From Psilocybe cubensis (lineage: Eukaryota), in the NCBI GenBank assembly GCA_017499595.2, contig CM039008.1:1364001-1428000 (forward strand): a stretch of DNA of 64,000 nt. Reading direction: 5' to 3'. Below the pieces are notes generated by a model, which was not told where the DNA came from, made no database searches, and saw only the letters and a list, made by a program, of their open reading frames with translations. The stretch's first letter is position 1. Each line of letters opens with the position of its first letter. Position numbers and translations under genes: made by a program. Positions 5,197 through 49,962 of the stretch are shown in pieces.

Positions 5197-6908
5197 AAAC
5201 CGAGTAGATTTATCTCTACTGCTTTTTTTCTTGTTCTTTTTTTCCTTCGTGGTTCCAATCTCCTCGATGTGAAAGGACGGAAAAAAAATTAGATATCGCG
5301 AATACGATCAGATGAAGCGGGATACTTTTTTCAAATGTATTAGTTCCTGGAACATATTTTGTTGTATGAATTGCTTGGACGAGATTGGGATGGGTGGATG
5401 GATGGATTTAAACGAGTTCGGGCGTTAGAGGTTGGATGTGGTTTGTCCGAGTTGGAAAGTTCTGATTGGTGTATGTGGTTTAAATCTACCGCATGTACCC
5501 ATGAGGACGAAGGAGGTGTGTTGCAGTTGAACGCTATACGAGCTTTTGTTAGGTAGCCAGATAGCGGGAGACAAGGAACGGTGCAGATCGTTCCTGCTCT
5601 CTTTTTTTTCTTACTACTTACCTTGTACGCATTATGACAGTCTTTTTGTTTTTTTATAGATTTTTTCTTTTTTATCTCAAAATTTTTTTTGTCTTCTGGT
5701 TTGGTGTGCGGTTTTTGGTTTTTGGTTTGGGATTGTTATGTGGTTCGGGATGTTGTGCCGTCTGGTCGTTCAGCTTGTTTGGGGGGATGGGCAAGGGATG
5801 GGTTGAGGTTGATTGTTGATGATGTTGAGAAAGGTGGGTGAGGGTGTAGGAGAATGCGTGAGGTTTATAGAATGAACTGTGTCTCGGTGTAGAGATGGGA
5901 TTTGCCTGCTGGTGTTGGCATTGAGATCTGAGAGGCTACGACTGTACGAGATTACGAGGAGACGCGACACGACGCGACGCGATGTGGGATACTGTATGGC
6001 ACGTGCTTTTGATAGCCAATAGGAACGTTCGAAGTTGAAATGAAATTGCTTCATAGAGGGCGAATGGCAACCTTGATCGAACCAAACTTGAACTGGAACT
6101 TTGACGTTGCTTTTGAATTTTGTCCTTGGACGTTTTGGTCTGATGCACTCTTGCACTCTTTGCTTTGCTTTTGGATTTTGAAGGATTGGTGACTGCTGGC
6201 GAAATGGATGGGTTTTTTCGTGCTGCTTCTTGGTCTTCAACTTTGGATCTGGTGTCTGGTTCTAACAAGTGCTTCAATTGCCATTTGATTCTTCGATTTG
6301 AGTGTGTCGAGATCGGGGATTCGGAAGGGCAGATTTGTATACTTTGGTTGAGCTTTACTGTGTTGAATCTTCGTTTGCTGCGCTCTGCTTTCTATGCGAC
6401 TGGACGTGGACGTTTAGGATGCCTGCAAAAATACTACCGTGCTACTGGATAACTGGACTATGTTTTCCTTGGGTGCTGCTGTCTTTTTTTGCATTGGACT
6501 TGGCATCGTTTAATGAACTAAACACGACGACTCTTGCGATGTTGTTTGTGCTGTTCTGTGTTTTTCGCTGCTCCCGCTCCAGGAATTCCAATATTTCAAG
6601 GTGCCCGTTCTCTGGACCTAGGTGTTTTCCCCACTCGATCTTATTCTCGATCTTCTGACACTGTCTCAGGTATCTTCGTCGTCTCTGACATAACATTCTG
6701 GACGCGACGCGTATACGTTTGTGTGGGGATGTTAGTTCCCCCTCGATCGATCGTATACAAGCTCGCCCGGGCGTGGTGTATATAATCCTACCCTCTCTTT
6801 ACTTCCTCTCTTTCCTTCCTTCTCTTCAGTCTCTCACCGAAGGAAAGACTCTACTGTATACCCTCTTGTTATTTTCTGCGATACCTCTTTACGAATATCA
6901 CGAACATC

Positions 6909-9858
6909 ATGAAGCTCTTCAAGCGCAAGTCTACCAAAGGCGATGTCGTCGCCGAGGTTATGGGCATCTCGCCCGGCGCCGTTGGTTCTGCCAACGACGC
7001 GACCAAGCCCAAGAAGAAGAAGGGCAAGGCCCGCCGTGTCTGTATGTATCTCATCTCATCCTCGCCAAGGCTCTGGAGCGTGTTCGAGCGTGTTCTGACG
7101 CGTTCATTTTTAGTCCTCGGTATCTTGAAGAAGACCGTTCCCTGCGCGTCGGGAAGAGCCCACACGGTTGAGAACGTCGGCGAGGACGAAAGCTTCTACG
7201 ACCAAAAGCACAAGAGCGAAGTTACTGCCACGGGCGAGTTCATCTTCGAGCCCATGGGGCTCCCCGCCCAATCGGTTGCGGTGCCCATCGCTGCGCCAGC
7301 CCCTGCCCACGTCGCCGGGCGCAGGAACCGTCAGGCTCAGATCATTCAGCCCAAGGTTCAGGCCCCAGCTGCTATGGGCGAGGTCAATGGATCCGTCGAC
7401 ATCGTCCAGGAGGCCAGGGAACGCACTGAGAGGGTCGTTCCAGAGGCGATGAACCCCGCCAACGCCAACGCTGGCGGGAACAGGAACCGCACTGCTCGCG
7501 TTATTCAGCCCAAGATTCAAGATGGGTCGGTCGACAAGTTCAGCATCATCGAGCGGGCCTATCTTCATCAGCTCAAAACGCAAGGAGATCGTCCTCCTCC
7601 CAGCGACGCGCAGAACAAGGCCAAGCGCCAGGCGCGTATCATGTACCCTGGGGCCATCAACCCTGACCACAAGCCTGGTGCAGTCAAGGCCGCCGACGTC
7701 GAGAAGGAGGTTAGCACTCGTCCCAAGATCCCCTTGCCTCCTATGCCTATCGACCCGACTTTCGACCCAAACGCAAGGAGCGAAGTGAGGATCGCGCACC
7801 CCTTCGTCTACCCCCCGCGCCCACCACCCAAGCCCCTCGTCGAGCACGATGCCAGCTCTCCTCCGAACATTCCTCTGCCACCTGTGCCCACCTACCCCTA
7901 CGACAGGAAGTTTAGGCGTCAGGCGCGCATCGCTCAACCCAAGGCTGTCGATGCTCCCGCCGAGGTCGCCGACGCCCCCGTCGTCAAGGTCGAGGAGCCA
8001 GTCAAGCCCGTCGTTGTTGAAAGCTCGACCACTCCCGAGGCTGTCGATGTCGTCGAGGTCGCCGAGGTCGCACCTGCCAACACCGTTCAGAAATCCAGAC
8101 GTCATGCACGCATCGTCCAACCGATTGTTTTCGCCCCCGACAATGAGCCAGCTGCTGTGGACGACCTCGACAACGGCAAGGACGCTGCTGTGGCCACCAA
8201 CGTCCTTGAGGTTGCCGAGGTCGACACTGCGAACGTTGCTCAGAGGAAGAGGCGTCACGCACGATTTGTGCTTCCCGTCGATTATATCCCAGCTTGTGAA
8301 GCTGCGACGGGTGTTGAGGTTGAAGATGTTGTCAAGCCTGCCGTGGTCGAAGAACCTGTCGGTGTTGAGGAGCCTGCCGTCGTGGTCGTCGAGGAGCCTG
8401 TCGTCGAGGAGCCTGTCGCCGTCGAGGAGCCTGTCGTCGAGGAACCTGTCGTCGAGGAACCTGTTGTCGTCGAGGAGTCAGCTGTCGTCGATGTTCAGTC
8501 CAAGGTCGTCGATCACGTCGAGGTCGACGAAGAACGCCGCAAGCGTGCTTATACCTCTTTCGATGCAGTGCTTGTTGGCCTTAGCCTTCTCCGCGATGAC
8601 TCCAGCGAGGGCGAAAGCTACAAGGAACGCGACTTTTTTTCAGACGGTACGTCTTTTATCTTTGTTTCACTGATGTCTACCTTTGGTTGACTTTTGTACC
8701 CATAGAATCTTCGCATCCTGGTGATGTAGAAGATGTCGTCTCTGAGGTTGCCGCTGCTGTTGAGAATGAGGTAGCTGTTCGTTGTTCTCTTGAGGTGCGA
8801 GTGGCTGTTACCTCCAAAGTTGTTGCATATGGAACAATTCTTTTCGATGAAAATAACAGTGAGTAATGTCTCTTTCTTTCATACTACTTTTGTTGTTGAC
8901 GTTTCAATAGATAACACTGTCTCCGAGGTCGCTTCGTTTGAAGATGACCTCATCGTCCTTGGATCTTTCTCCAAGGATGCCGATTTCAAAGTTTGCACCT
9001 TCGGGTCCATTCCTCTTCTGGAGGATGATACCAGTGAGTACCCCTGTTATCACATTCTGTCTCTGTCTCTCTCCTCTTTCTTTTCATGCCTCCGCAACTT
9101 CAGCTGCTGATGTCTTGTGGCTTCTAGTCGGCAATTTCATCAAGACACAATATCTTACTCGTCGTGTTGCCGTTGGGAAGACCTCGGAAGTTGTTGGTTC
9201 GTCTGTTGTTGATTCTTCTACAGTCAGCGAGGTTGTCGATAGATCCTCGAATGGCGACTTGTCTCCTCTTGTGGATTCTATTCCTTCGGAGTACTCTTCC
9301 TCTCCTACTACTCCGGTCGAGGTTCAACAAGCTGGGGACCTGCCAAAGGAGGAGGTGAAGGAAGAAGTCAAAGAAATCGTTGATGTCATTGAAGAGGTAC
9401 CTGTTCTCGGTTCCCCTATCAAACTTGTGACTTCTTCACCCAAGCTTGCTGTGGTTCCAACCTCGCTTCCTTATGCCAAGGGAGTTCCTACTCGTCGGGT
9501 CGATATTCGTGGCACTCGTCAACGGGTCCAATGCGAGGGAACATCGACCAGCACTGGGGAACAACCTGGCGTTCTCGTGCGAAGTATTCTGAACTTGGAA
9601 GAGGCGTACTCTACGACCAATAAGCCTCGCATTGCTTCAGCTTCGCCTGTTGTCGAGACGGATGCACCGCTTTCCACTACCAGGAAAGTTCCACCTTCTC
9701 GAATTCCAGTACTGGCATCACGACGAGAAGCTCTTGCTCGCCGTCGCTTTGGTACGCTATACGAGTCGCGATCTACACCTGCACCTGGTATTCGACCTTT
9801 GTTACTGCCCTTGCATAAGAGCAATCGCGATGCATACGACTCGGAGCATGAGCGATGA
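6909..9858 (+). CDS. Orphan disordered Pro/Glu/Val-rich protein (FGSIPLL family), copy A, 5 exons
   Basis: TATA at ~6778 followed by a CT-rich leader; long ORFs; GT-AG introns at ~7042, 8647, 8859 and 9034 keep the frame; intact near-identical copy at 28027; diverged paralog at 38601. Confidence 0.8.
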
Positions 9859-10195
9859 ACACTATATTCTGCTGGCATCTTCGCTGGTATTTGCATATTA
9901 TTCTGGCTCTCTCTCTCTCTCTCTCTTTTTCTCTCTCTCATCTCTGGATTTGTATCGACTCTGGTTTCTGTCTCTCGTCTTTTTTTCTCGTCTCTGTCTC
10001 TCTCTGTCTCGTCTCTCGTCTCTTGTATCTCTTTTTGTCTCTTTTTTCTATCTCGATTTTTGTCTCGTTTATTGTGTCTTGTTTCTTTTTCTCTCTCTCT
10101 TTTTTCTCTTTTTATTTTGTATTTTTTCTTGATCTGTATCTTTTTCTTTTTCTGTCTCCCTTAATATGCCGTTCATCTTGGTGACGGTCATCATA

Positions 10196-10825
10196 TATCT
10201 GGTGAGTTTTCGCACACTGCAACTATATCTTGCAACCTTTCTGACTTTTATTTTTTTAGGATTTTCGCCCTTCATATATGGGCATAAGTTCAACAATCTA
10301 TATCAAATTTTAGACATATATCCTCTTAATATCTGGCGAGTTTCACACTGCAACTGTATTACACACCTGTCCTAACTCTTTTTCTTAGGATTTTTGCCCT
10401 TCATATATGGGCGTAAATCCGAATAATCTGCATCAAGTTTTAGACAAATATACTCGTAATATCTGGTGAGTTACACGTTGTATCTGTGCCTCACCTGTCC
10501 TAACTCTTTTTCTCAGGATTTTCGCCCTTCAAATATGGGCGTAAATCCAAACAATTTGCATCACATTTTAGACAAATATACTCGTAATATCTGGTGAGTT
10601 CCACGTTGTAACTGTGCCTCACCTGTTTTGACTCTCTTCTTAGGATTTTCGCCCTTCATATATGGGCGTCTTTATCAAATTTTAGACAAATATACTCGTA
10701 ATGTCTGGTGAGTTTCACACCGCCATTGTTCTCTACACCTGTTCTGACTCTTACCAGGATCTTCGCCCTTCATATCTGGGCGTAATCCGAATAATCTGCA
10801 TCAAATTTATACTCTATTAGATATG
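10196..10825 (+). repeat. Tandem array of 5 intron+exon units (~115-135 bp), copy A
   Basis: Each unit is ATCTG|GTGAGT...CTAAC/CTGAC...YAG|GATTTTCGCCCTTCATATATGGGCG...; donors at 10202, 10336 (GC), 10466, 10594, 10708, then 10826. Confidence 0.85.
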
Positions 10826-11295
10826 GTAAGCTTTGCACATCCCTTTTCGTCTACTCTCTCTCATCTCAATTGTCGCTGTTGACAGGTCCTTTATACATCT
10901 TTATGGAAGTGTCGTGTGCATTTGTCATGACTATTTCTCTTAATCTTTCGTACGATTTATGCGCATTTAAATCGTTTACTGTATCTAACTTCAGTTCTAA
11001 GGTCTTCTATACATTTCGACGATGTCCATTTATCGTCGTTCTTCATGGCCGATGACTTCATTACATCCTCGAAGTCGTTCGCCTGCTCAGTGACTCGCGT
11101 TCGGATTTCACTGACAAAGTTCTCGCTCCTTGGCACCATTGGTTAACAACGCTCGCAGTTTCAGCAGGTGAGTCCTAGTTATCTTCAACATTACTCTCCT
11201 TTCTGATCATACTTTTTCAGATTTCTCAGCTGAGGCTTCTTAGGCATACTCTACCCTGGGCACAGGCCATACCGCCCAGCACTGGAAACAATATC

Positions 11296-11530
11296 CGGGT
11301 TAGGGAACACACAGCCGACGGGCATCCTTGTGTTCCTCCTTTCATCAGGTGAAGGAGTTGTCTGACGGGACAATTTCTGAGCCACATCGCAGCCGCATAT
11401 GGAGTCGGGAGCGCTGACGAGTGCTCTCGTTTTCATTGTGTGGCTGCGGTGTCCGGTTGCATGGGATAGGGGGCGCAGTGCTGACGAGTGCTGTTTCCTT
11501 CTACTCTTGCGCCGGGATGATTGCCCGGAT
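11296..11530 (+). ncRNA. Putative structured RNA element with four GACG-tetraloop hairpins, copy A
   Basis: GACG loops at 11317, 11364, 11416 and 11483, each closed by a stem; compensatory changes relative to 49085-49320. Confidence 0.65.
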
Positions 11531-11730
11531 ACCTCCCAAACCAGTTGCCCATTCCGGATGCGCCAACCTCCAGCCTCGCCTTGCCTTTATATCTGCCGCT
11601 GCAAATTACTCGTTGCCATCATCATACGCCATTGGACCGAACACCTGGACGCTACCGTCCTTCTCCGTCCTTCTCCGGAGCCCTAGACAATCGCTGGCTC
11701 AAACTTCTCTGCAATGTTCGAGATAGACCT

Positions 11731-12070
11731 CTATCAACTTTCTCGGCATTTACGACCTTCACGACCTTTTACGACCTCCACGGTTTTACAACCGTCATGA
11801 CCTTTACGACATTTTACGACCTTCACGGTTTTACGACCGTCACGACCTTTTACGACCTCCACGGTTACACAACCGTCACGACCTTTACGACCTTTTACGA
11901 GCCTCACGGTTTCACAACCGTTACGACCTTTCACGACCTTTTACGACTTTTACGACCTCCACGGTTACACAACCGTCACGACATTTTACGACCCTCACGG
12001 TTGCACAACCGTTACGACCTTTTACGACCTCCACGGTTTTACAACCGTCATGACCACACCGTTACGACCA
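11731..12070 (+). repeat. Hairpin minisatellite (ACGGTT-NNAC-AACCGT with ACGACCTTT spacers), ~7 hairpins, copy A
   Basis: Repeats are directly visible. Confidence 0.9.
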
Positions 12071-13132
12071 ATCAAGAGCCAGGCTATTAGTCTTCTCGCC
12101 AATCATAGACGGCCACCTTTGACATGCCATCACACATCACTATACACTACCTTTACGATGCGCATACTGTCTACCCGCTCTGGCTCGCTCGTTGGCTTTT
12201 CGCCTGGCTTCCACAATCTATTGCCTCGGGGCTACTTCTGCTTTTGTTCTTGCTGTCTTCGTTCATTTTTTGTTATTCTCTCTTTGTTCAACAATTTCTT
12301 GTTTTCGATGTTACTCGTATTTCTTTGTTGTTGCTTTTATCTTGTTCTCTTCGTTCTCCTCTTCATGCTTCATCGGACAATTTTTGCATTTACATGCTAC
12401 TTTGCCATTTTCGTGCTTCATTGCTACACACTACCATTTCTTTCAAATATTTCTTCCATCTTTATTTCTTATTATCAACTCAATTTATTTCATATATCTT
12501 TATATATTTTCTTTTAGTCTCTTATTCTTATTATCTTCTAATTTATTTCCTTCAATTTAAACCATCACATATCTCTGCTTTACATTCATCTTTTTATCAT
12601 CTACTCGCTTCTAAATCTTCTTTTGAATCTTCACATATAATTTTTATATTTTATACCTATGTACCAACATATACTCTCCATCTTCTAATATATTCTGCTT
12701 TGAAAATCTAATAAATGTTTGAACCTAAGTTTGCTGCTAGAGGACAAGAACTCATTAGACTTTAACCCCTTTTAAAGCCGTGAGAACTAGGAAGGCCCCT
12801 GATCATGCTTTTGTACGCCCTTTCTGTCATCAAGTCGCACTGTTGGTTGTGCTCTTCGTGTTCTTCCACAATATGGATCATGATCGTTTCTATCGCCCAT
12901 TTTTATCAACTTGCTTCCAGTTAGCTGCATTATCATCGATTTTTAGAGTTCTGTTTAGATGATTCGGATTCCCTACCTGACTGTCACATTTTTTGCTTTT
13001 CGATCTCGATCGTTTTCTGGATGAGTGTGATCCCCAATTATTTTTCCCAATGCATTCATTCTTCTTCTTCCTATTAGTTTCATCTTCAGCGGGTTTTTCA
13101 TGGCAGATCTTCTATTCTCAATCCTTTCCACC

Positions 13133-14314
13133 ATGGGCACATCTTCGCTCTCGAAACTGTTCGCTCGTCCTTCAAAACGCCTGGGTGTTCATTCCATGAA
13201 AGGTAAAGAAGAGTCCAATTTCAGCAGTGAAATCTTCCAACTGCTGATGCTCAACAGCATGAGGAAAGTTCTTCCAGTGCGAGGTCAGAGCAAGATCTCC
13301 ATTCCGGTGTGTACTTCATAATAGCGTTATCGTAAGATGGACTCATCGGACACCTCTTCCATCTTCCACAGCTGTTGAAAAGCCTTCTCCACCAATGTCA
13401 AAAGAGGAGGCCTTCGAGGCGTTGTTGGCGATGTCTGAATCTGACGAGGATTCGAAGCGCTCTTCAGTTTTTACCATGAAAAGGACGAGTTCTGGCGAGT
13501 CATCACCATCAGAATACTCAAGCTCCCCTTCAACACCTTCTTCGTTCTCGCTCAGCGTACTTTCTGGAGACTCTGAAAAGAAGGATGGTGAAAGTATTAG
13601 ATTCCCCAAAAGCGACACGGAGTCTGATTTGGCGGTGCCTTCTGAGGAAAAGCTTGAACCTACTACCCTTGCGACTGAGGTAGGCTCAAAAGAAGACGTG
13701 GCGGAGGACCCTTGCTCTGGCGGGCATACACAAGATGATGATTACCTCGATATGCGCCTGGTCAATAAGCTCTTCGAGGACATTGTCAACCCGCGTGCGC
13801 GTCGCGTAGGTATGGTCCCCGGACCACGCACTGGACTTGGGAACGCTATTTTGGCCGCATATAAGCAGGAGTTACTAGAGACTGTTATTGCGCTTGAGGA
13901 TTCGTTTTCCTCACCGGTCCCCGCGTCGGGACTTTCACCGTACCCATGGGATAAGGTGCCTGAGGTATCGGGTGGCGACATAGATGCCGGGGACAGCTCG
14001 CCTGACGCCAGTTTCGACAGCGCTGTGGTTAGTCTGGATATCTTCAAAGAAAAGGACGAAGTCCCTTCCCAACCAACCACGGCGGTGCTTGATGGCGAAG
14101 GAATAAAAAAATGGCTTCGAGATTTTCTCTTCCACCTAATTTCAGGAAGGAAGAACCGGATCCCAATCCTCTGTTGACTGTGGTTCATATTCTCCTTCGA
14201 AGACAGCAAGACAAAGTGAGGGGAATTTTGCGCATTTCTGTGGACAGGGATATACATCCTCCCGACACGAAAGTGTTCAGGACCATTTCAACTCGCCCAT
14301 TCGCTAAGTTTTGA
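13133..14314 (+). pseudogene. Second orphan Ser/Glu-rich gene, frameshifted copy (intact copy at 61662-60479)
   Basis: Relative to copy C it lacks one C at ~13238 and one A at ~14105 (A7 vs A8); both are homopolymer sites. Confidence 0.65.
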
Positions 14315-15350
14315 TTCTCGGTCTTGGGTTCTGCGTCCTCTTCTGGTTAAGATTATCGCTTAGGTTTTTCCTTGTTCTTCTTTGCTAGCGACATTCTCTA
14401 TCGATTCTGCATTCTATTCCATGGAGCTCAGACAGCCCTTTTGCTGCATTCACGTGGTTGTTTTGCATAAATTTCTGCATTCCGTCTCGCTCGTGCTATC
14501 TCTATCGACAAGGAGGTCTACGACTTTTTGGCCACCGCCACCACCAAGCATGGCCTTGGCTTCTGGATGCCCGGCTATGGTATCATTCACCAGATTATCC
14601 TCTCTTTGGCCGGTTGTGGTGTTTGACCGTCGAGACCCAAGGACTCCAGTATCTCCAATCGGAGTCTTCTTTCACCCATGGAACGACTCGACTGAAATGA
14701 CAAAAAGGCAAACCACCCCATGTACCCAGACACCACACGCGTCATGCGTATGCATCCACCCACAACTGTTCTCAGCGTCCTTTCGGACAAGTCCACAGGG
14801 CCGTTATGTTATCAATCTAACATCTACTGACGGGTGTGGTGTCGTGTATCATGAGGACTCGGATTTGTTCGCAAACCTGAGTCACGTAGCTCCAGTTTTT
14901 GCGTTTTAACCAGATCGGATCCTCAAAAAGGTTGTGCCTAAAGAACTGAACAGATCTTGATTCACGTTCGATACGCGTCCTTGATTTTTTCAATCTGTGT
15001 GCAAAAACTGAAGCTTCCTGCAACTTATTTATCTAATGATCAACTACATTCCTGTCTTCCTTATCATGTGGTGTGATGCATGATGACTTGAGTTGTCAGC
15101 TATCAGCGCGCGATGACAGGCGCCTTTTCATAGTTCCTGATACGAGGACAATAGACGCCCAAATACAGTCTGACCGTCGTCGACGCATTGATGAGTGGGA
15201 GGTTTCCATCTAGCCCTATGGACGTGAAGGTGAAGTGGTGCAAGTTCAAGCAAGAGAAAGATCTGTAAACTCTGATTTTGAGGTACACATAGCATGCCCG
15301 TAGCATTTAATTTCAGAGATCTGTAACTAACTAACTAACTACCCAATATA

Positions 15351-26370: not shown

Positions 26371-28026
26371 TGGTAGTTTTGTTTCGCCGATTTTCAACAT
26401 GTTGATCTGTAGTATTTTGAGAAATATAATGTATAGGCTAGGAGCGGTTGCACTTCGTCAGCGATATTTTTATTATTATTCAAATTCTTGTTTTGAGGGC
26501 ACGGTTACCCTGGAAGACGCAAGTTGCAAACCTGTGTCATGTAAAGACCATGGGAAAGTAGGAAGGCTGGTATCGCATGCGCTACGAAGGCTACTAAAGT
26601 GGAGTTCCACGGGCAGCAGTATAGGCCAGTCGCGAATGGGAGAACACCACTGAGTCCCGGGAGCAGGCGTTTCCTCGATGCCTTCAACAAGCCCTGGGCC
26701 ATTCAACGATTCACATACGAAGCTCTTCAGGTAAAACGGGATATTGGGTCAAGAGAGCGTCAATACCTATATTCCTGTCTATCCAAATGATTGCAGGTTT
26801 TCCAGTGCCTATGGGCGAGTTTGCATGAACCCTGGCGTGGATATCATTTTTCGGTAGAGGTTGAGCATAGTACGGAGTCGGATTAGGTGAAGTTCTGCTA
26901 ATGGTGGGAGATGTCTCCATTCTAGTAGTAATTGCTTGGTTTTTTGGGATGGGCAAGGGATGGGGTGGGTGTAGGAGGATGAGTGAGGTTTTATGATGAA
27001 CTGTGTTTCGGTGTAGAGGGGAGATTTGCCTGCTGTTGTAGTGAGACCTCGAGATCTGAGAGGCTATGACTGTACGACTACGAGGAGACGCGACACGACA
27101 TGACATGACGCGACGCGACGCGATTTTGGGACACGAATGGCACGTGCATTTGATAGCCAATAGGAGTGACATTCGAAGGTTGTAGAGAGTGAATGGTAAC
27201 CTTGAACTTGAACTCGAACTCTGATGTTGCTTTTGCATTTTGTTCTTGGACGTCTCGGTCTGATGCACTCTTGTACTCTTTGCTTTGCATTGTGAAGAAT
27301 TGGTGTCTGTCTGGCGAAACGGATGGGTTTTCGTGCTGCTTCTCGGTCTTCAACTTTGGACCTGGTGTCTGGTTCTAACAGGCGCTTCAATTGCGATTTG
27401 GTTCTTCGATTTGCCTGTGTCGAGGTCGGGGATTTGGAAAGGCAGGTCTGTATACTTTGGTCGGGGGTTGAGCTTTACTGTGTTGAATCTTCGTTTGTTG
27501 CTCTCTGCTTTCTATGCGACTGGACGTTTAGGATGCCTGCAAAAATACTATTGTGCTACTGGACAACTGGGCTACGTTTTTCCTTGGGTACTACTGCTGG
27601 CTTTTTTCTCATTGGACGCGGTAGCATTTCAATAAGCTAAACACGACGACTCTTGCGATGTTGTTTGTTCTGTTCTGTTTTTTTCCTGCTCCCGCTTCAT
27701 GAATTCCAAGATTTCAAGGTGCCCGTCCTCTGGACCTAGGTGTTTTCCCCACTCGATCTTATTCTCGATCTTCTGACACTGTCTCAGGTATCTTCGTCGT
27801 CTCTGACATAACATTCTGGACGCGACGCGTATACGTTTGTGTGGGGATGTTAGTTCCCCCTCGATCGATCGTATACAAGCTCGCCCGGGCGTGGTGTATA
27901 TAATCCTACCCTCTCTTTACTTCCTCTCTTTCCTTCCTTCTCTTCAGTCTCTCACCGAAGGAAAGACTCTACTGTATACCCTCTTGTTATTTTCTGCGAT
28001 ACCTCTTTACGAATATCACGAACATC

Positions 28027-31018
28027 ATGCAGCTCTTCAAGCGCAAGTCTACCAAAGGCGATGTCGTCGCTGAGGTTATGGGCATCTCGCCCGGCGCCGT
28101 TGGTTCTGCCAACGACGCGACTAAGCCAAAGAAGAAGAAGGGCAAGGCCCGCCGTGTCTGTATGTATCTCATTTCATCCTCCCCAAGGCTCTTGAGCGTG
28201 TTCGAGCGTGTTCTGACGCGTTCTGTTCTTTTTAGTCCTCGGTATCTTGAAGAAGACCGTTCCCTGCGCGTCGGGAAGAGCCCACGCGGTTGAGAACGTC
28301 GGCGAGGACGAAAGCTTCTACGACCAAAAGCACAAGAGCGAGATCACTACCACCGGCGAGTTCATCTTCGAGCCCAAGGGGCTCCCCGCCCAATCGGTTG
28401 CGGTGCCCATCGCTGCGCCAGCCCCTGCCCACGTCGCCGGGCGCAGGAACCGTCAGGCTCAGATCATTCAGCCCAAGGTTCAGGCCCCAGCTGCTATGGG
28501 CGAGGTCAATGGATCCGTCGACATCGTCCAGGAGGCCAGGGAACGCCCTGAGAGGGTCGTTCCAGAGGCGATGAACAACGCCAACGCCAACGCTGGCGGG
28601 AACAGGAACCGCACTGCTCGCGTCATTCAGCCCAAGATTCAGGATGGGTCGGTCGACAAGTTCAGCATCATCGAGCGGGCCTATCTTCATCAGCTCAAAA
28701 CGCAAGGAGATCGTCCTCCTCCCAGCGACGCGCAGAACAAGGCCAAGCGCCAGGCGCGTATCATGTACCCTGGGGCCATCAACCCTGACCACAAGCCTGG
28801 TGCAGTCAAGGCCGCCGACGTCGAGAAGGAGGTTAGGGCTCGTCCCAAGACCCCCTTGCCTCCTATGCCTATCGACCCGACTTTCGACCCAAACGCGAGG
28901 AGCGAAGTGAGGATCGCGCACCCCTTCGTCTACCCCCCGCGCCCACCACCCAAGCCCCTCGTCGAGCACGATGCTAGCTCTCCTCCGAACATTCCTCTGC
29001 CACCTGTGCCCACCTACCCCTACGACAGGAAGTTTAGGCGTCAGGCGCGCATCGCTCAACCCAAGGCCGTCGATGCTCCCGCCGAGGTCGCCCCCGCCCC
29101 CGTCGTCAAGGTCGAGGAGCCAGTCAAGCCCGTCGTTGTTGAAAGCTCGACCACTCCCGAGGCTGTCGATGTCGTCGAGGTCGCCGAGGTCGCACCTGCC
29201 AACACCGTTCAGAAATCCAGACGTCATGCACGCATCGTCCAACCGATTGTTTTCGCCCCCGACAATGAGCCAGCTGCTGTGGACGACCTCGACAACGGCA
29301 AGGACGCTGCTGTGGCCACCAACGTCCTTGAGGTTGCCGAGGTCGACACTGTGAACGTTGCTCAGAGGAAGAGGCGTCACGCACGATTTGTGCTTCCCGT
29401 CGATTATATCCCAGCTTATGAAGCTGCGACGGGTGTTGAGGTTGAAGATGATGTCAAGCCTGCTGTGGTCGAAGAACCTGTCGGTGTTGAGGAGCCTGCC
29501 GTCGTGGTCGTCGAGGAGCCTGTCGCCGTCGAGGAGCCTGTCGCCGTCGAGGAGCCTGTCGCCGTCGAGGAGCCTGTCGCCGTCGAGGAGCCTGTCGCCG
29601 TCGAGGAGCCTGTCGTCGAGGAACCTGTCGTCGAGGAACCTGTTGTCGTCGAGGAGTCAGCTGTCGTCGATGTTCAGTCCAAGGTCGTCGATCACGTCGA
29701 GGTCGATGAAGAACCCCGCAAGCGTGCTTATACCTCTTTCGATGCAGTACTTGTTGGCCTTAGCCTTCTCCGCGATGACTCGAGCGAGGACGAAAGCTAC
29801 AAGGAACGCGACTTTTCTTCAGACGGTAGGTCATTTATCTTTGTTTCACTGATGTCTACCTTTGGTTGACTTTTGTACCCATAGAATCTTCGCATCCTGG
29901 TGATGTAGAAGATGTCTCTAAGGTTGCCGCTGTTGTTGAGAATGAGGTAGCTGTTCGTTGTTCTGTTGAGGTGCGAGTGGCTGTTACCTCCAAAGTTGTT
30001 GTATATGGAACAATTCTTTTCGATGAAAATAACAGTGAGTAATGTCTCTTCTTTCATACTACTTTGTTGACGTTTCAATAGATAACACTGTCTCCGAGGT
30101 CGCTTCGTATGAAGATGACCTCATCGTCCTTGGATCTTTCTCCAAGGATGCCGATTTCAAAGTTTGCACCTTCGGGTCCATTCCTCTTCTGGAGGATGAT
30201 ACCAGTGAGTACCCCTGGTTCTCTCTCTCTCTCCTCTTTCTTTCCATGCCTCCGCAACTTCAGCTGCTGATGTCTTGTGGCTTCTAGTCGGCAACTTCAT
30301 CAAGACACGATATCTTACTCGTCGTGTTGCCGTTGGGAAGACCTCGGAAGTTGTTGGTTCGTCTGTTGTTGATTCTTCTACAGTCAGCGAGGTTGTCGAT
30401 AGATCCTCGAATGGCGACTTGTCTCCTCTTGTGGATTCTATTCCTTCGGAGTACTCTTCCTCTCCTACTACTCCGGTCGAGGTTCAACAAGCTGGGGACC
30501 TGCCAAAGGAGGAGGTGAAGGAAGAAGTCAAAGAAATCGTTGATGTCATTGAAGAGGTACCTGTTCTCGGTTCCCCTATCAAACTTGTGACTTCTTCACC
30601 CAAGCTTGCTGTGGTTCCAACCTCGCTTCCTTATGCCAAGGGAGTTCCTACTCGTCGGGTCGATATTCGTGGCACTCGTCAACGGGTCCAATGCGAGGGA
30701 ACATCGACCAGCACTGGGGAACAACCTGGCGTTCTCGTGCGAAGTATTCTGAACTTGGAAGAGGCGTACTCTACGACCAATAAGCCTCGCAATGCTTCAG
30801 CTTCGCCTGTCGTCGAGACGGATGCACCGCTTTCAAGTACCAGGAAAGTTCCACCTTCTCGAATTCCAGTACTGGCATCACGACGAGAAGCTCTTGCTCG
30901 CCGTCGCTTTGGTACGCTATACGAGTCGCGATCTACACCTGCACCTGGTATTCGACCTTTGTTACTGCCCTTGCATAAGAGCAATCGCGATGCATACGAC
31001 TCGGAGCATGAGCGATGA
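28027..31018 (+). CDS. Orphan FGSIPLL-family protein, copy B
   Basis: Near-identical to 6909-9858; the coding indels seen are in-frame (extra EEPVAV units, one codon deletion). Confidence 0.8.
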
Positions 31019-31066
31019 ACACTATATTCTGCTGGCATCTTCGCTGGTATTTGCATATTATTCTGG

Positions 31067-31101
<35 letters not shown>

Positions 31102-31354
31102 ATCTCTGGATTTGTATCGACTCTGGTTTCTGTCTCTCGTCTTTTTTCTCGTCTCTGTCTCTCTCTGTCTCGTCTCTCGTCTCTTGTATCTCTTTTTGTC
31201 TCTTTTTTCTCTCTCGATTTTTGTCTTGTTTATTGTGTCTTGTTTCTTTTTTTCTCTCTATTTTCTCTTTTTATTTTGTATTTTTTCTTGATATGTATCT
31301 TTTTCTTTTTTGGTCTCCCTTAATATGCCGTTCATCTTGGTGACGGTCATCATA

Positions 31355-31857
31355 TATCTGGTGAGTTTTCGCACACTGCAACTATATCTTGCAACCTTTC
31401 TCACTTTTATTTTTTTAGGATTTTCGCCCTTCATATATGGGCGTAAGTTCAACAATCTATATCAAATTTTAGACATATATCCTCTTAATATCTGGCGAGT
31501 TTCACACTGCAACTGTATTACACACCTGTCCTAACTCTTTTTCTTAGGATTTTTGCCCTTCATATATGGGCGTATATCCGAATAATCTGTATCGAATTTT
31601 AAACAAATATACTCGTAATATCTGGTGAGTTCCACATTGTAACTGTGCCTCGCCTGTTCTAATTCTTTTCATAGGATTTTCGCCCTTCATATATGGGCAT
31701 CTTTATCAAATTTTAGACGAATGTACTCGTAATGTCTGGTGAGTTTCACACCGTCATTGTTCTCTACACCTGTTCTGACTCTTACCAGGATCTTCGCCCT
31801 TCATATCTGGGCGTAAATCTGAATAATCTGCATCAAATTTATACTCTATTTCATATG
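31355..31857 (+). repeat. Intron+hairpin-exon array, copy B (4 units)
   Basis: Donors at 31361, 31495 (GC), 31625, 31739, then 31858. Confidence 0.85.
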
Positions 31858-32329
31858 GTAAGCTTTGCACATCCCTTTTCGTCTACTCTCTCTCATCTCA
31901 ATTGTCGCTGTTGACAGGTCCTTTATACATCTTTATGGAAGTGTCGTGTGCATTTGTCATGACTATTTCTCTTAATCTTTCGTACGATTTATGCGCATTT
32001 ATTTCGTTTACTGTATCTAACTTCAGTTCTAAGGTCTTTTATACATTTCGACGATGTCCATTTATCGTCGTTCTTCTTGGCCGATGACTTCTTGACATCC
32101 TCGAAGTCGTTCGCCTGCTCAGTGACTCGCGTTCGGAATGCACTGGCAAAATTCTCGCTCCTTGGCACCGTTGGTCAACAACGTTTCGCAGTTTTCAGCA
32201 GGTGAGTTCTAGTTATCTTCAAAATTACTCTCCTTTCTTATCATACTTCTTCAGATTTCTCAGATGAGGCTTCTTAGGCATACTCTACCTTGGGCACAGG
32301 CCATACCGCCCAGCACTGGCAACAATATC

Positions 32330-32565
32330 CGGGTTAGGGAACACACAGCCGACGGGCTTCCTTGTGTTCCTCCTTTTATCAGGTGAAGGAGTTGTCTGAC
32401 GGGACAATTTCTGAGCCACATCGCAGCTGCATATGGAGTCGGGAGCGCTGACGAGTGCTCTCGTTTTCATTGTGTGGCTGCGGTGTCCGGTTGCATGGGA
32501 TAGGGGGCGCAGTGCTGCCGAGTGCTGTTTCCTTCTACTCTTGCGCCGGGATGATTGCCCGGATA
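32330..32565 (+). ncRNA. GACG-hairpin structured element, copy B (4th loop mutated to GCCG)
   Basis: Near-identical to 11296-11530. Confidence 0.6.
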
Positions 32566-32772
32566 CCTCAAGACCAGTTGCCCATTCCGGATGCGCCAAC
32601 CTCCAGCCTCGCCTTGCCTTTATATCTGCCGCTGCAAATTACTCGTTGCCATCATCATACGCCATTGGACCGAACACCTGGACGCTACCGTCCTTCTCCG
32701 GAGCCCTAGACAATCGCTGGCTCAAACTTCTCTGCAATGTTCGAGATAGACCTCTATCAACTTTCTCGGCAT

Positions 32773-33266
32773 TTACGACCTTCACGACCTTCACGACCTT
32801 TTACGACCTTTTACGACCTCCACGGTTTTACAACCGTCACGATCTTTTACGACCTTCACGACCTTTTACGACCTTTTACGACCTCCACGGTTACACAACC
32901 GTCATGACCTTTACGACATTTTACGACCTTCACGGTTTTACGACCGTCACGACCTTTTACGACCTCCACGGTTACACAACCGTCACGACCTTTACGACCT
33001 TTTACGACCTCCACGGTTTAACACCGTCATGACCTTTACGACATTTTACGACCTTCACGGTTACACAACCGTCACGACTTTTACGACATTTTACGAGCCT
33101 CACGGTTTCACAACCGTTACGACCTTTCACGACCCTTTACGACTTTTACGACCTCCACGGTTATACAACCCTCACAACCTTTTACGACCCTCACGGTTGC
33201 ACAACCGTTACGACCTTTTACGACCTCCACGGTTTTACAACCGTCATGACCACACCGTTACGACCA
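32773..33266 (+). repeat. Hairpin minisatellite, copy B (~10 hairpins)
   Basis: Repeats are directly visible. Confidence 0.9.
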
Positions 33267-34719
33267 ATCAAGAGCCAGGCTATTAGTCTTCTCGCCAATC
33301 ATAGACGGCCACCTTTGACATGCCATCACACATCACTATACACTACCTTTACGATGCGCATACTGTCTACCCGCTCTGGCTCGCTCGTTGGCTTTTCGCC
33401 TGGCTTCCACAATCTATTGCCTCTGGGCTACTTCTGCTTTTGTTCTTGCTGTCTTCGTTCATTTTTTGTTATTCGCTCTTTGTTCAACAATTTCTTGTTT
33501 TCGATGTTACTCGTATTTCTTTGTTGTTGCTTTTATCTTGTTCTCTTCGTTCTCCCTTTCATGCTTCATCGGACAATTTTTGCATTTACATGCTATTTTG
33601 CCATTTTTATGCTTCATTGCTGCACACTACCATTTCTTTCAAATATTTCTTCCATCTTTATATCTTATTATCAACTCTATTTATTTCATCTATCTTCATA
33701 TATTTTCTTTCAATCTCTTATTCTTATTATCTTCTAATTTATTTCCTTTAATTTAAACCATCACATATCTCTGCTTTGCATTCATCTTTTTATCATCTAT
33801 TCGCTTCTAAATCTTCTTTTGAATCTTCAGATATAATTTTTATATCTTATACCTATATACCAACATATACTCTCCATCTTCTAATATATATTGCTTTGAA
33901 AATCTAATAATTGTTCAAACCTAAGTTTGCTGCTAGAGGACAAGAACTCATTAGACTTTAACCCCTTTTAAAGCCGTGAGAACTAGGAAGGCCCCTGATC
34001 ATGCTTTTGTACGCCCTTTCTGTCATCGCTGTTTCTGTCTTAACATTGCTCAGTCGCACTGTTGGTTGTGCTCATCGTGTTCTTCCACAATATGGATCAT
34101 GATCGTTTCTATCGCCCATTTTTATCAACTTGCTTCCAGTTAACTGCATTATCAGCTTTTTCTTAGGATATTCTCATAGTACATGAATGTTTTCGAGTAC
34201 ATATTAACCAAAATAAGAAAACTCCAACGATAGTATTTTATGTCTGCGTCATGAGAGTGTCTAAAGGTGGTACATGTATATGGGTTAAACTGAGAGAATC
34301 AACGTCGAACGTCAACCATGTTGTCTTATAAGCCGATAGAGCCGTTAATGATCGGAGTTCATATTTTAAACTCGGGCCCCTCAGGGACAAACATAAATGT
34401 GGAATTTATTTTACAAACCTACTACTCTTTCATGCTCAGAGAAGCATCACAGAACCTCTACGACAGAACGCTCTCGTGTACTAGAATTTGTGGCACTTGT
34501 GTAAACCACGTTTAATTTTGAGGGCTTCCTGAGTAATTCAATCGGCGATTAGAATATGATTTCCGTTTACCCACGCCGCCTGGCACCTTGCCATTAACCA
34601 TCTATCACCGTTCCCACTGTGCTCTGCTCAAATCGTGAATATCCTTTGCTCTGACTGGCAACACATTCTTTAACTATTTGTCGTATATTAGTTAAAGCAT
34701 ACACATTTTTGGAAGCCCA

Positions 34720-38860: not shown

Positions 38861-39146
38861 TGTAGGGATTTGGATACGCGTGCGCGCGACGCGACTCACA
38901 ACAAACACGTCACATGACGCTTGCGGACACACTCACTTGGCATCGTCGACGCCATATGGCCACAGCATAGACGCGTAGTCAGTAGTTAGCACCTTACCGG
39001 AGACGTCGTTACACACCGAAGGACGTATCGAATCATATTTCCTATTTTTTTCCCATCTCTTTCCGTGCTAAACACATAAATATCTACAAAACTCTGTCCG
39101 TACTCAGGCTACTTTGTCCTCTCTCGAACTCGCCCCCTTCCCTACA
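38861..39146 (+). repeat. 5' LTR
   Basis: Identical by eye to 46661-46946. Confidence 0.97.
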
Positions 39147-39328
39147 TCTGGAGCCCACCGCGAGGGGACAAAACCAGTAAAACCGGTTTTGCCCGCCCCC
39201 TTGTCCGTTAAACCCCGTGTCACTGAGGAACTGTCAATATTGCCTCAAACAGCGGAAGTTCGACATCCCAACCGGTTCGAGGCTCCTTTCTCAAGAAGGG
39301 CTCGGGAATTCGATCTTCTTCTGGGAAA

Positions 39329-42300
39329 GTGATACCCAAGTTAGCTCCAAGGAAAGGGAAGAAAAAGGACGACGAATCTGAGTACAAACCATCGTCGAAA
39401 GCCAGCAGTTCTAACTCGTTATTACCCACCTCGGAAGCACCTCGAAATCGCCGCAACATTGCACCTGTCAGTTATAGGGAGCGATCTGCGTCTGTTAGTC
39501 CACAGGACGCTAACGAGCTCACTGTCAACGCACCAAATACTGACCCTATCACACCTACGCCAACCCAATTTTCGTTTCGACACGCACCACCACCGTTATT
39601 CAATCGGTTCTCATTTCCACAAGGTACATTCCCAGGAGCGTGGTCTGTTGCAACACCACCAAGTGTACCACGACTAGCGTCGATTGAAGAGCCGGTTGAC
39701 GAACCTCGTGAAGACGAATTTGATAGCGCCAAAGAGTGGCAAACATCGGACGGCGATTTCTTACCAGAACTCGATTTCAACGAGGAATCAGATCCACCAC
39801 CAAGATCTATCAGATCTGAGTCGCCGGAGGCAAGGTCAGAATCAGGAGAAGAAGACAAAGAAGACGTTAACAAGGAACAGCAAGTAGGAGAAGAAACGAA
39901 GCAAGACGAAGAAGATCAGCAACAGCAAGACGAGTTCAAAGCAACCGACGTACCAGCTCCAGCTAAACAAGACAGCCAGACATCCAACAAAGAAGAACCA
40001 AAGTCGTTACAAGTCCCTATACCCGAATCCCAATCAGGAGAATTGAAGAAAGAAGAATCGAAAGAAGAGAAGGACGCACCAAAGACAAATAACAACATGG
40101 TTCAACCAGGAGGATCGACGACAACCTTTTTGAAGGAGATGCCAGCGCCGGGCTCGAGTAAAGCACCTAGCTGGTCAGGAGATGTAGATGAGCTGGAGGA
40201 CTTTCTGGGGAAGTTCGAAAGGTTAGCAAAGACGGCGGGGTTAAATGACGAGATGATGGCAGAGGCAGTGGTGGACTATTTGAGGAAAGAGTCAGATGTG
40301 AAGTTCTGGAAAACTTTCAAGGGTTACCGATTGGACCGACCACGGAGCTTCAAGGCAATGAAGGAGAAGTTAAAGGAGGAATATCCGTGGATGACAAAGG
40401 GTGGGAGTTACACGGTGGACGACTTGACGAGAGTGATTGCCAAAGCGACAAAGGGCAGTGGCATCAGGACCAGTGTCGAGCTCACCGAGTACAATAAAAA
40501 CTTTGAACCAATTGGTCTCTGGCTAGTCAAACAAGGCGAGATCACTGAAGACGAATTGAACGAGTACTTCTGGATGGGCTTACCGCCTCGCCTTCAAGAC
40601 CGGGTGGAAGTGCAGATGGGGGGGAAGAAAATAGGGTTGACGGGAAGGATGGCAGCTCCAGCGGTGGAGGATGTGTTGAAAACGGCGAGGCTGTTATTAG
40701 ACGAGGATGTAGGGAAAGGGAAGAGAGCTGAGCGAGAGGAGAAGTTGAGGAGGGCACAGAAGAAGCTGAAGAAGAAGGAAAAGCGGCGGAAGAAGAAACA
40801 TGAGAGCAGCTCATCGGATTCATCATTGGATTCAGAAACCGAGTCAGAAACCGAGTCTGTGTCATCGGACACATCAGAATCATACACTGAATCGTCAGAT
40901 AGTGAGGACGAGAGGAGGAAGAGGAGGAGAAAGGAGAAGCGACGGGATGCAAAGGAGAAGAAGAAGAAAAAGAGAGAAAAAGAGAGGGAGAGGGAGAGGG
41001 AGAAGGATAGAGAGCTGGCGGAGTTGAGGGCAAGATCAGAGAGGCGGAAGGAAGAGGAGATTGCAAAGGTGAAAGAGGAGGAGGATGTGGTGCGAACTCG
41101 ACGAGTCTCATTTGGCGAACCAAAGAAGAAGACTCGAGAAGAGGATATTGGTGACTTGACACGCAAGCTAGCAGGATTGAAAGTTGGCGACGCAAATTAT
41201 GCTGCAACCTACGGTCAACTCTGTGCTATGGACCCAAACGCGCATATCTGGATACCAACACTACTGGCAACAACTCAGCAGGCGGCAGCAACAAACATGG
41301 CAGTACACGCACCCTATCAGCCACAATTTGCACCAACGTATCAAACTCAGGCTTATCATACGCAGGCACAAACATTCGCCGCTCCGCAAATGCAAATCCC
41401 ACCACCAATACAATACGCCCAGGCGGGTATGTCAGGCCCAAGTTCAAACAGCTGCTATTTCTGCAAAAAAGGACAACATCGCATACGTGACTGTGTAGCC
41501 GCAGCCGAATACGTTAAAGTTGGCCGCATCATGTGGTTTGGAACTCCAGCTCGATTGACATATGCAAACGGAGAGCCTATCCGTTTTGAATATGGGCAGA
41601 GTTTGAAGGACGCTGTTGATAAGCGGTTCGGGTCAGCAGTTCCAACCCCAGGTCAAGAAGGGTGGCAGAGGGATCAACCACCACATGTCAATGTTGCAAC
41701 AAGCGGTTATTATACGCAGACTACCAGAAACGCTAAGACATACACCACAGGGCGCAATGGAGAACAAGTGAAAGTGGAAGCAAGTAGCGGGCGGAAGAAA
41801 ACAGTGGAGGAAGTGCGAAACGAGTGGAAGGAGATCCCATGGGAGAACGGGTACGAAAGCGAGGGCAAAGTGGAGTGGATGGCATGGCAAGAGGTGGCCA
41901 CAGCGGAGGCATTGCTGCAGACACGAAGCGGGAAGAAGACGGGTGATGATGATGAGGAGAGCGGGAGGAAGGAGCAGGAAAAGAGGATAGAGAGAGAGAT
42001 GAAGGAGAGAAAAGGAAAGGCAAGGGCGGAGGAGGGAGAAGGACACCACACTGACATCAAACACATCCGTTTCGATCCCAATGCCATTCAGCGAGGAGGA
42101 CACGAGAAAGCATACACATACGAGTCCAGCATATCTGATCCAAAAGCGGCTTTGAAGATGGCAGAGAAAATCTTCAAAACTATTATACCTGAGGTTACGG
42201 TCGGCGATATTTACGCACTCAGCGGGGACGTACGAAAAACAATGGTTGAGAAACTCAAGGTTGTGCGAGTACCTAACGAGGCATTCCCCAAAACCTCACT

Positions 42301-46285: not shown

Positions 46286-46660
46286 CGAGCGGGCGATGGT
46301 GCAAAAGAGGGGGGAGGAGGTGTGAAAGAGGGGGGAGGAGGGAAAGAGAAATTTGGAAGAGAAAAGATATTGAGTGAGATCGGAGACGAGAGACGACGAG
46401 CGAGGGCATATAGACAATGGAGAGAGCTAGTTAGAGAGTTAGAAGGAAGAATGAATGGCGAGGGGAGGAGGACTGACCGAATAGAGAGGAAAGGAGGTGA
46501 TAGAGGCCACTTGAGACTGGGTCTTGAGCAGGCCACATATCAGGTCGTGACTGGATGGATCCATATCACGAATAGCACTAGGGAGTGGGCCGCAGGATGT
46601 AGACTCGAAACCGAAACCGAAATTTCAGCCAGGAGCCTGAAATTTAAAGTGGGGGGGAGA

Positions 46661-46946
46661 TGTAGGGATTTGGATACGCGTGCGCGCGACGCGACTCACA
46701 ACAAACACGTCACATGACGCTTGCGGACACACTCACTTGGCATCGTCGACGCCATATGGCCACAGCATAGACGCGTAGTCAGTAGTTAGCACCTTACCGG
46801 AGACGTCGTTACACACCGAAGGACGTATCGAATCATATTTCCTATTTTTTTCCCATCTCTTTCCGTGCTAAACACATAAATATCTACAAAACTCTGTCCG
46901 TACTCAGGCTACTTTGTCCTCTCTCGAACTCGCCCCCTTCCCTACA
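46661..46946 (+). repeat. 3' LTR
   Basis: Identical by eye to the 5' LTR. Confidence 0.97.
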
Positions 46947-49084: not shown

Positions 49085-49320
49085 CTGGGTTCTAGAGCGC
49101 TACGAGGTCGACGGACTTCCTGCTGCTCTCCTTCGTCAGGTGAAGGATGGCCCGACGGGGCTATCTTTTCACCGCATCGTTGGCATGCTGTGTCGGTCGG
49201 AGTGCTGACGAGCACCTCTGCCTTCATTGCATAGTCTTGATGCCCGATTTCATTGAAGAAGGAAGCATCGCTGACGAGTGATGTTTCTTTCTTTCTATGT
49301 ATCGGAGACGAAGATCTGAA
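49085..49320 (+). ncRNA. GACG-hairpin structured element, diverged copy D
   Basis: GACG loops at 49110, 49154, 49207 and 49273; stems are re-paired with different sequence; preceded by a putative intron 48993-49049. Confidence 0.62.
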
Positions 49321-49856
49321 CCGTCAACCTCACACTGGATCTCTTCCGCTTGCTCAGGCTAGCTCAGGCTAGCTCTCATCTGTCCGCCAAACTATTAGCA
49401 CACCCTTACTGGCTCGATGACGTTATCCATTTATTTCACTCGCAAGTTGGATCGCCCTTGACGTTTTAAATTTTCATCATGACTCAGGCTATTGCCAACA
49501 TTTTCTCTATGTCTTTGCTTGCTCCATGCTTTTCCTCGAACATACATCTTTTCTGCGTTACTTTACTATCATGCTTTTGTGCTTCTTTTGATTTTTGTAG
49601 TTTCAAGTGTTCCGTTTCTATCATTTTATCTCATTATCTGCGTCCTTTTTCTTTAGTTTTCTTTAGTATTCAAAATTAAACCTGGATCTTGTCCCAAGCT
49701 ACGCGTGATACTTAATCCTTGAATCGTTGCAAAGTAACTTCATACCATTCATAATGATTTTAATATTCGCCATGATTTCCGTGTCATGAACAAACAAAGT
49801 TTACGGTATATTAACTAGAACAGGAGAAATGAAATCAAAAAGAAATGGAAAAAGAG

Positions 49857-49962
49857 TGACCGAGGTAGGGGTCGAACCTACAATCTCCTGATTGCGAGAT
49901 CACGTGATCAGAAGTGCACGTACTGATCGTAGTCAGACGCGATGCCATTTCGCCACACGGCC
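49857..49962 (-). tRNA. tRNA-Arg(ACG) with a ~34-nt intron
   Basis: GGCCGTGTGGCGAAATGGCATCGCG TCTGA CT-ACG-A [intron] ATCAGG...GGTTCGACCCC...CTCGGTCA; A and B boxes; downstream T-run. Confidence 0.92.

Follow-up and report, generated by a model that had tools for sequence, protein, structure and literature searches.

A probably selected RNA domain with four GACG-tetraloop hairpins in a duplicated fungal locus

Does a stretch of fungal DNA with four GACG-capped hairpins encode a functional RNA, and if so, what would read its loops? The question was raised by an initial annotation of a 64,000-nt window (the whole stretch of DNA that was analysed), which had proposed that two copies, here called A and D, are a functional fungal RNA domain. 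Fungal-type traits are present in the window, namely introns of 52-65 nt in which the branch sites read CTAAC/CTGAC, a domain of 3-dehydroquinate synthase and an element of the Ty3/Gypsy order. Copies were detected by motif searches and by a covariance model, R1, over the whole 64,000-nt window. A and D proved real as placed, but the count of two fell short, since two more copies, B and C, were recovered (Table 1). Model R1 found no copy in the window beyond these four and returned only weak reverse-strand echoes of A/B. A, B and C are approximately 97% identical to one another, and D is the sole diverged copy, matching A at 66% of positions over 188 nt. The three similar copies are each part of a larger duplicated unit, several kb long, that includes ordinary-looking genes: positions 5835-12935 at A are co-linear with 26961-34154 at B, and positions 11009-14434 at A with 64000-60359, inverted, at C.

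Table 1. Coordinates in the 64,000-nt window of the four copies, of the parts of the folds of A and D, and of neighbouring features.
Feature	Position	Strand	Basis or remark
Structured RNA, copy A	11296-11530	+	MFE -129.6 kcal/mol, z -9.3; model R1 286 bits
Copy B, near-identical to A	32330-32564	+	model R1 283 bits; MFE -126.0
Copy C, near-identical to A, inverted orientation	63477-63711	-	model R1 280 bits; MFE -129.8
Copy D, diverged paralogue	49085-49320	+	MFE -116.4, z -8.0; model R1 177 bits
A hairpin H1 (35 nt)	11303-11337	+	GACG loop 11317-11320
A stem P0, 5' strand	11342-11346, pairs with 11516-11520	+	fold of A
A hairpin H2 (36 nt)	11348-11383	+	loop 11364-11367; 5' strand GGUGAAGGA same in D
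A hairpin H3 (69 nt)	11384-11452	+	loop 11416-11419, top GCU-GACG-AGU; native -48.9 kcal/mol
A hairpin H4 (63 nt)	11453-11515	+	loop 11483-11486, top GCU-GACG-AGU
D hairpins	H1 49094-49129, H2 49139-49173, H3 49174-49243, H4 49244-49305	+	fold of D
D stem P0	49131-49137 with 49307-49313	+	fold of D
CT-rich block	9900-10160; D-locus counterpart about 48460-48580	+	downstream of orphan gene stop
GT-AG interval (53 nt) upstream of A	11168-11220	+	sequence; run X1 joint
Second GT-AG interval upstream of A (52 nt)	10950-11001	+	sequence; run X1 joint
Predicted GT-AG intron (57 nt) upstream of D	48993-49049	+	sequence and alignment with A intron (11168-11220) only

Folded separately, A and D adopted the same architecture, in which a 5' hairpin, H1, is followed by a four-way junction with hairpins H2, H3 and H4. 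The three-hairpin junction is closed by stem P0, which opens it with almost no unpaired bases and has five pairs in A, and is thereby nearly gap-free. The element measures approximately 220 nt and folds on one strand; D lacks the outermost stem seen in A (11296-11300 with 11523-11527). Hairpin lengths in A and D agreed within 1 nt (H1 35/36, H2 36/35, H3 69/70 and H4 63/62 nt). The positions of the GACG loops given by the initial annotation were reproduced in the sequence, with loop starts spaced 47, 52 and 67 nt apart in A (Table 1) and 44, 53 and 66 nt apart in D (49110, 49154, 49207 and 49273). Each stem that it had quoted was present in the sequence and also in the independent minimum-energy folds of A and D. 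On the + strand, none of 200 dinucleotide shuffles reached the folding energy of A or D. When 120-nt windows were slid along the sequence, the top + strand signals fell within 11340-11520 (z to -10.3) and 49070-49340 (z to -6.2), and a weaker patch with z of about -3 was observed upstream of A, at 10860-11130.

All four hairpins are tipped by GACG in A, C and D, and three of four in B, where the fourth loop is GCCG. Either copy B is decaying or not every loop is essential. A count over both strands of the whole window gave 14 GACG-capped hairpins of at least five uninterrupted pairs, 12 of which belong to the four copies; the mean across all 256 tetraloop sequences was 4.1 hairpins. The loops fall into two classes, Y-GACG-G on the short H1 and H2 and GCU-GACG-AGY on the long H3 and H4. 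The invariant letters are those of each loop and of the top two or three pairs of its stem, and the stems otherwise vary; UCAGGUGAAGGA, which comprises the junction and the 5' side of H2, is identical across all copies. The pentamer CCGTC, complement of the H1/H2 loop GACGG, occurs downstream of the element at 11655 and 11665 in A (twice, in a 10-nt duplication), once in B at 32688 and in D at 49321, directly after the domain. For a 5-mer this may be coincidence, or else the pentamer could serve in loop-to-tail pairing.

The compensatory changes claimed for the stems of A and D were borne out by pair counts, arm swaps and a drift simulation, in a comparison between two independent lineages (A/B/C and D) from one window of one genome. 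In a MAFFT alignment, 13 of 93 pairs had changed on both sides and were still paired, a count that uses the structure of copy A and in that way favours structure. Shuffled controls gave a mean of 3.7 and reached 13 in none of 500 cases, six slid controls gave 0-5, and RNAalifold returned the same 13 both-side changes. The independent folds of A and D, compared in a structure-weighted alignment, had 46 pairs in common, 30 of them identical, 7 changed on one side and 9 changed on both. Moreover, the summed hairpin energy was -115.1 kcal/mol for native A and -102.2 for native D, compared to -59.0 and -70.9 kcal/mol for the arm-swapped chimeras, and H3 of A gave -21.0 and -28.5 kcal/mol after its arms were swapped with those of D. 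Random drift of A to the distance of D was simulated in 300 versions, with 64 substitutions per 220 aligned columns placed randomly in A according to the observed spectrum. The drifted versions folded at -76.2 +/- 7.7 kcal/mol, the best at -96.3, compared to -116.4 for the real D.

The closing stem P0 co-varies as well (CAUC/GAUG in A and CGUC/GACG in D), with A-U in A replaced by G-C in D, and the near-loop pair of H1 is C-G in A and U-A in D. Stem substitutions among A, B and C amount to three, numbers too small for significance, and all are C-to-U changes opposite G that keep the pairing; one substitution in C replaces a U-U mismatch in H3 by a U-G pair. At the nucleotide level, the 8.6-kb A locus and the 11.8-kb D locus matched best in the element itself (64.6 bits, E 3.6e-12). 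This match was detected with a 1/-1 scoring scheme and missed by default blastn between the loci. The next and only other nucleotide matches were CT-rich, low-complexity blocks (9900-10100 and 48470-48565), at no more than 34.7 bits. Thus, the shape was kept while the surrounding DNA, genes included, diverged almost beyond recognition, which argues that the fold itself is under selection. We consider it very probable that the element is a real, selected structured RNA.

The folds also indicate which strand is at work. Of the 93 pairs of A, 20 are G-U, as are 11 of the 88 pairs of D, and the - strand folded far more poorly (z of -1.6 for A and -4.5 for D). This asymmetry between the strands stems from the G-U pairs and rules out a palindrome at the DNA level, in line with the initial annotation, which had placed the RNA on the + strand. 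The annotation had also stated that the + frames it checked are broken in at least one copy; this holds and extends further, since stops occur inside the element in all three + frames of A, B, C and D alike. The conserved blocks CAGGTGAAGGA and GACGGG lie 7 nt apart in A and 6 nt apart in D, a 1-nt indel, and just downstream of the element A differs from B/C by indels of 1 nt and 10 nt. A protein-coding exon was accordingly rejected, the shared open frame being missing and the 1-nt indel between conserved blocks being frame-breaking.

We compared the element with known RNA families. With Rfam 15 at gathering scores, the whole window yielded only a tRNA, and permissive scans of 11000-11800 and 48800-49600 gave 3 and 6 matches, all at E of at least 2.3, which scored 10.6-17.5 bits compared to gathering scores of 38-88. 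These scans agree with the earlier statement that the element belongs to no recognised family, and the reading as a new structured RNA is supported. As to a functional fungal RNA domain, the structured domain under selection stands, by fold, covariation and the Rfam result; the jobs that had been proposed for it (dimerisation, localisation or protein binding) were drawn by analogy. The tRNA match (49857-49962, - strand, 47.5 bits) spans 106 nt, which implies an intron, and ARAGORN as run reported none in the window. Two look-alikes were discarded. A 5S-like GGCCATACC upstream of A had no Rfam 5S match and is absent from D. One and a half telomere-type repeats, GGGTTAGGG, lie at the 5' edge of A (11298-11306), B and C; they are absent from D and hence taken as coincidence, and a telomerase template was rejected on the same absence and on the location of the reverse strand of GGGTTAGGG on the unstructured strand.

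In a further step, the genomic setting of the copies was investigated. Upstream of A, an orphan gene (6909-9858) encodes a lineage-restricted protein that is long and disordered; the stop codon 9856-9858 closes the last large open frame of the gene. The protein has about six arginine-motif repeats (R-R-x-A-R-I-x-Q-P) and long V/E/P-rich tracts. The gene has no Pfam family and one homologue in a large protein collection: Pfam gave 0 families in 9 ORFs of the duplicated units, and the 315-aa ORF had only 1 homologue (216 aa) among 8000 scored candidates. The protein atlas gave no usable match for the neighbouring proteins, and ORFs 8911-9858 and 13263-14177 showed no detectable relationship to each other. 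A diverged paralogue of the orphan gene was found upstream of D from weak, co-linear tblastx matches in short patches; relaxed tblastx between the regions upstream of B and D gave low-complexity matches only. The D-locus paralogue is split by a Ty3/Gypsy-order LTR element (38861-46946) situated 2.1 kb upstream of D. This element has LTRs of 286 nt with 100% identity to each other and TG...CA ends, ACAC flanking both sides and one uninterrupted 2352-codon frame with protease, RT, RNase H and integrase domains. Identical LTRs, an intact frame and a position inside the gene indicate a recent insertion, and the D locus may be out of use, its neighbouring gene being split by a young LTR element.

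The gene at 13263-14177 that follows A, and its counterpart after C, are missing at B and D, and thus the structured element either goes with the upstream sequence or is a unit of its own. Downstream of the orphan gene stop, the CT-rich block is a possible promoter of the element-carrying transcript. Between this stop codon and A, a 128-nt unit is repeated 4.5 times (10251-10808); each unit consists of an apparent exon of ~77 nt and a GT-AG intron of ~52 nt with a CTAAC/CTGAC branch site. Exon-intron modules would thereby have been duplicated in tandem where the DNA is apparently non-coding. More short GT-AG intervals come after the repeats. Tandem repeats are present on both sides of A, B and C. 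Just downstream, a minisatellite (11749-12055, 32772-33251 and 62747-63236, respectively) has periods of ~9, 36, 45 and 81 nt, with units that contain repeated ACGACC and small perfect hairpins of the ACGGUU-NNNN-AACCGU type. D has no such minisatellite, which was thus placed outside the conserved core.

We then investigated whether the A locus is transcribed, using contigs over 9500-13500 from five runs of one organism containing the stretch, none of them recorded as RNA. Runs X3-X5 covered 9500-13500 evenly, as DNA would, and the cover of X1, which was only guessed to be RNA, was patchy. Contigs of X1 showed joints from 10948 to 11001, from 11151 to 11221 with four other letters between, and from 13306 to 13376. 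These match + strand GT-AG intervals at 10950-11001, about 11168-11220 and 13307-13371 (52, 53 and 65 nt), and no such joints were observed in X3-X5. Thus, X1 behaves as RNA, given its patchy cover and its joints at GT-AG intervals that X3-X5 do not have. Two X1 contigs bear on the element, one made of 11001-11151 plus 11221-11284 (spliced) and one at 11344-11777; none of the X1 contigs listed spans 11285-11343, which contains H1. The X1 gaps at 9902-10839 and 12582-12715 were not counted as evidence, and contigs cannot give transcript ends, strand or level. Most of element A is therefore present in RNA-like contigs of a locus spliced in + orientation, and the element is probably a domain in an exon of a spliced, non-coding transcript without a conserved reading frame. 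The carrier could be a non-coding gene of its own, the 3' UTR of the orphan gene or the leader of the gene that follows.

Relatives elsewhere were sought by pattern. A strict pattern gave 1 stretch in a metagenome collection, a chance match in a GC-rich bacterial coding region, and 0 stretches in viral contigs; such exact patterns are a weak test, from which absence elsewhere does not follow. A looser two-loop pattern gave at least 120 viral stretches, and model R1 had 0 matches at E up to 1 on 80 listed loci plus L001 (652,593 bases). The papers found on GACG tetraloops are mostly retroviral, the rest concerning DNA-repeat hairpins and none of them fungi, and no printed description of the four-hairpin element was found in the literature searched, the main texts of two fungal surveys included.

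What, then, is the domain for? Four copies of one small feature, arm lengths fixed to 1 nt and a tight junction give it the look of a rigid display scaffold. Our preferred reading, to which we give a probability of roughly 0.5, is that of a new selected structured RNA domain that displays four loops, as a rigid scaffold, to a loop-specific partner in a spliced transcript. The scaffold would hold four copies of one recognition element at fixed distances, this element presumably being the tetraloop with the top two or three pairs of its stem. The partner would be specific for the loop, a protein or protein oligomer being the most likely candidate. By binding multivalently, it would govern how stable the carrier RNA is, where it is located or how it is translated. 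The carrier transcript would sit downstream of paralogous copies of the lineage-restricted disordered-protein gene. That the loops are displayed multivalently to a protein in particular is a tentative reading, held at somewhat less than even odds. Nothing in the present data separates protein, RNA and nuclease partners.

By analogy with retroviruses, the partner could also be RNA: GACG loops would kiss via their self-complementary CG step and form dimers or networks that serve co-transport or granule assembly. Four identical GACG loops were retained in both lineages, and arm lengths fixed within 1 nt would fit a geometric requirement. The review PMC516450 describes GACG tetraloops that act in retroviral packaging and dimers, with heterodimers between RNAs that share such loops. 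Yet the top two or three pairs of H3 and H4 (GCU/AGY) are conserved in sequence too, which a two-base-pair kiss would not require; copy B tolerates GCCG; and the element fits neither the retroviral Rfam model nor any other and lies outside a retroelement leader. We thus regard RNA-RNA multimerisation as unlikely. Less likely again is the more specific proposal that a cellular, non-viral RNA uses retrovirus-style GACG kissing loops, spaced at fixed distances by a rigid four-armed domain, to link transcripts into defined multimers or condensates. Assemblies of this kind might involve the arginine-motif disordered protein of the adjacent gene or other GACG-bearing RNAs.

A nuclease as reader is quite improbable in our view. 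An RNase III-type enzyme (Rnt1- or Dicer-like) would read the loop and adjacent pairs of H3 and H4 and cut at a fixed distance, either destroying the carrier RNA or releasing small RNAs, as a processing or decay signal. H3 and H4 are long (about 30 pairs), nearly perfect duplexes with conserved loop-proximal pairs, and yeast Rnt1p picks its substrates by the tetraloop plus neighbouring pairs. Rnt1p substrates are defined by an AGNN (or AAGU) tetraloop, however, and the loop of the element is GACG, not AGNN. An Rnt1p-type substrate was rejected for this reason, all loops being GACG, with GCCG in one copy. Moreover, the stem sequences are not conserved, which leaves no conserved small RNA, and the retention of H1, H2 and the four-way junction would stay unexplained.

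Very improbable is a mobile or repeat element (SINE-like, a non-autonomous retroelement or a foldback), the structure of which would serve its own propagation. Four copies in 64 kb, the tandem repeats flanking A, B and C, and the Ty3/Gypsy-order element near D could be taken in its favour. However, A, B and C lie within several-kb co-linear duplications together with ordinary-looking genes, and D occupies the corresponding position in a diverged paralogue of the locus, where an intron aligns upstream. In a search for features of a transposon terminus in the window, the copies were found inside these larger duplications, and the unit has neither terminal repeats nor transposon protein domains (0 Pfam families in 9 ORFs). 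The initial annotation had named a TE terminus as a possible refutation, and the copies lie outside the only recognisable transposon of the window (38861-46946). This transposon, also its only LTR element, contains 0 GACG hairpins of at least five pairs, and the G-U asymmetry speaks against a foldback at the DNA level. Finally, it is hardly credible that the element has no function, its fold having arisen by chance or being in decay, or that it is a short coding exon: one copy has a mutated loop and partial open frames of about 50-60 codons reach into the element in D, but these frames are not common to A, and the z-scores, arm-swap test and drift simulation lie far outside chance.

Fungi have so far yielded few structured RNAs of unknown class, and four identical tetraloops on fixed-length arms are an unusual and easily mutated design, so that what reads a GACG loop in the cell becomes directly testable. 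If the partner were another GACG loop, the mechanism of retroviral genome dimerisation would enter cellular RNA biology, and the multimers would represent a new class of eukaryotic RNA self-assembly module.

Among known systems, several with similar letters or stems could be set aside. The string CUGACGA of H3/H4 (CUGACGG in H2 of A) recalls a hammerhead ribozyme, in which CUGANGA and GAAA core strands surround a three-helix junction that has a cleavage site; in the element it forms a hairpin tip and lacks a GAAA core strand, and hammerhead models gave no match at E up to 10 in 11000-11800 and 48800-49600. A microRNA-like cluster was rejected on the reverse pattern, loops and loop-proximal pairs being invariant and the arms different and co-varying. 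Hairpins of the Ire1 (HAC1/XBP1) type carry a seven-nucleotide loop, CNGNNGN. Among the 8 loops of A and D, 7 agree with the letters C-N-G-A-C-G-R, the exception being H1 of D, which starts with U. An Ire1 site was rejected, the outer letters lying in two strong closing pairs that leave a four-base loop (eight bases when opened). Rnt1p substrates are similar to the element in having a tetraloop and adjacent pairs as the conserved feature on variable long stems, and differ from it in loop sequence (GACG here) and in that the element has four hairpins in a fixed architecture. In the localised mRNAs of bicoid and oskar, the dimerisation loops of the 3' UTRs have complementary or palindromic stretches of greater length. 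By analogy, both they and the element could link molecules through hairpin loops in a non-coding part of a cellular RNA, whereas only the CG step is self-complementary in the element.

According to PMC516450, GACG tetraloops of alpha- and gammaretroviruses take part in packaging and help dimers to form and to remain stable, and similar loops are placed in alpharetroviruses and small-ruminant lentiviruses. The gammaretroviral (MLV-type) packaging region similarly has neighbouring GACG-capped hairpins on a long RNA, with conserved loops and variable stems. It has two such hairpins, whereas the fungal element has four, three of them on a four-way junction. The viral hairpins are set in a retroelement 5' leader, between the LTR/primer site and gag, and the fungal element probably in a cellular spliced transcript. 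Likeness to a retroviral packaging signal is limited to the loop sequence. The main texts of two surveys (Gao, Jones and Rivas 2021, PMC8216456; Li and Breaker 2017, PMC5640933), which contain 0 occurrences each of "GACG", describe multi-stem structures in fungal UTRs and intergenic regions that are supported by covariation and have no known function. The query genomes of the 2021 screen, as given in its main text (PMC8216456), include no basidiomycete, and one of its structures, in the GLY1 3' UTR, has four stems around a junction. Compared to the structures described in these texts, the present element differs in being multi-copy and linked to an orphan gene family.
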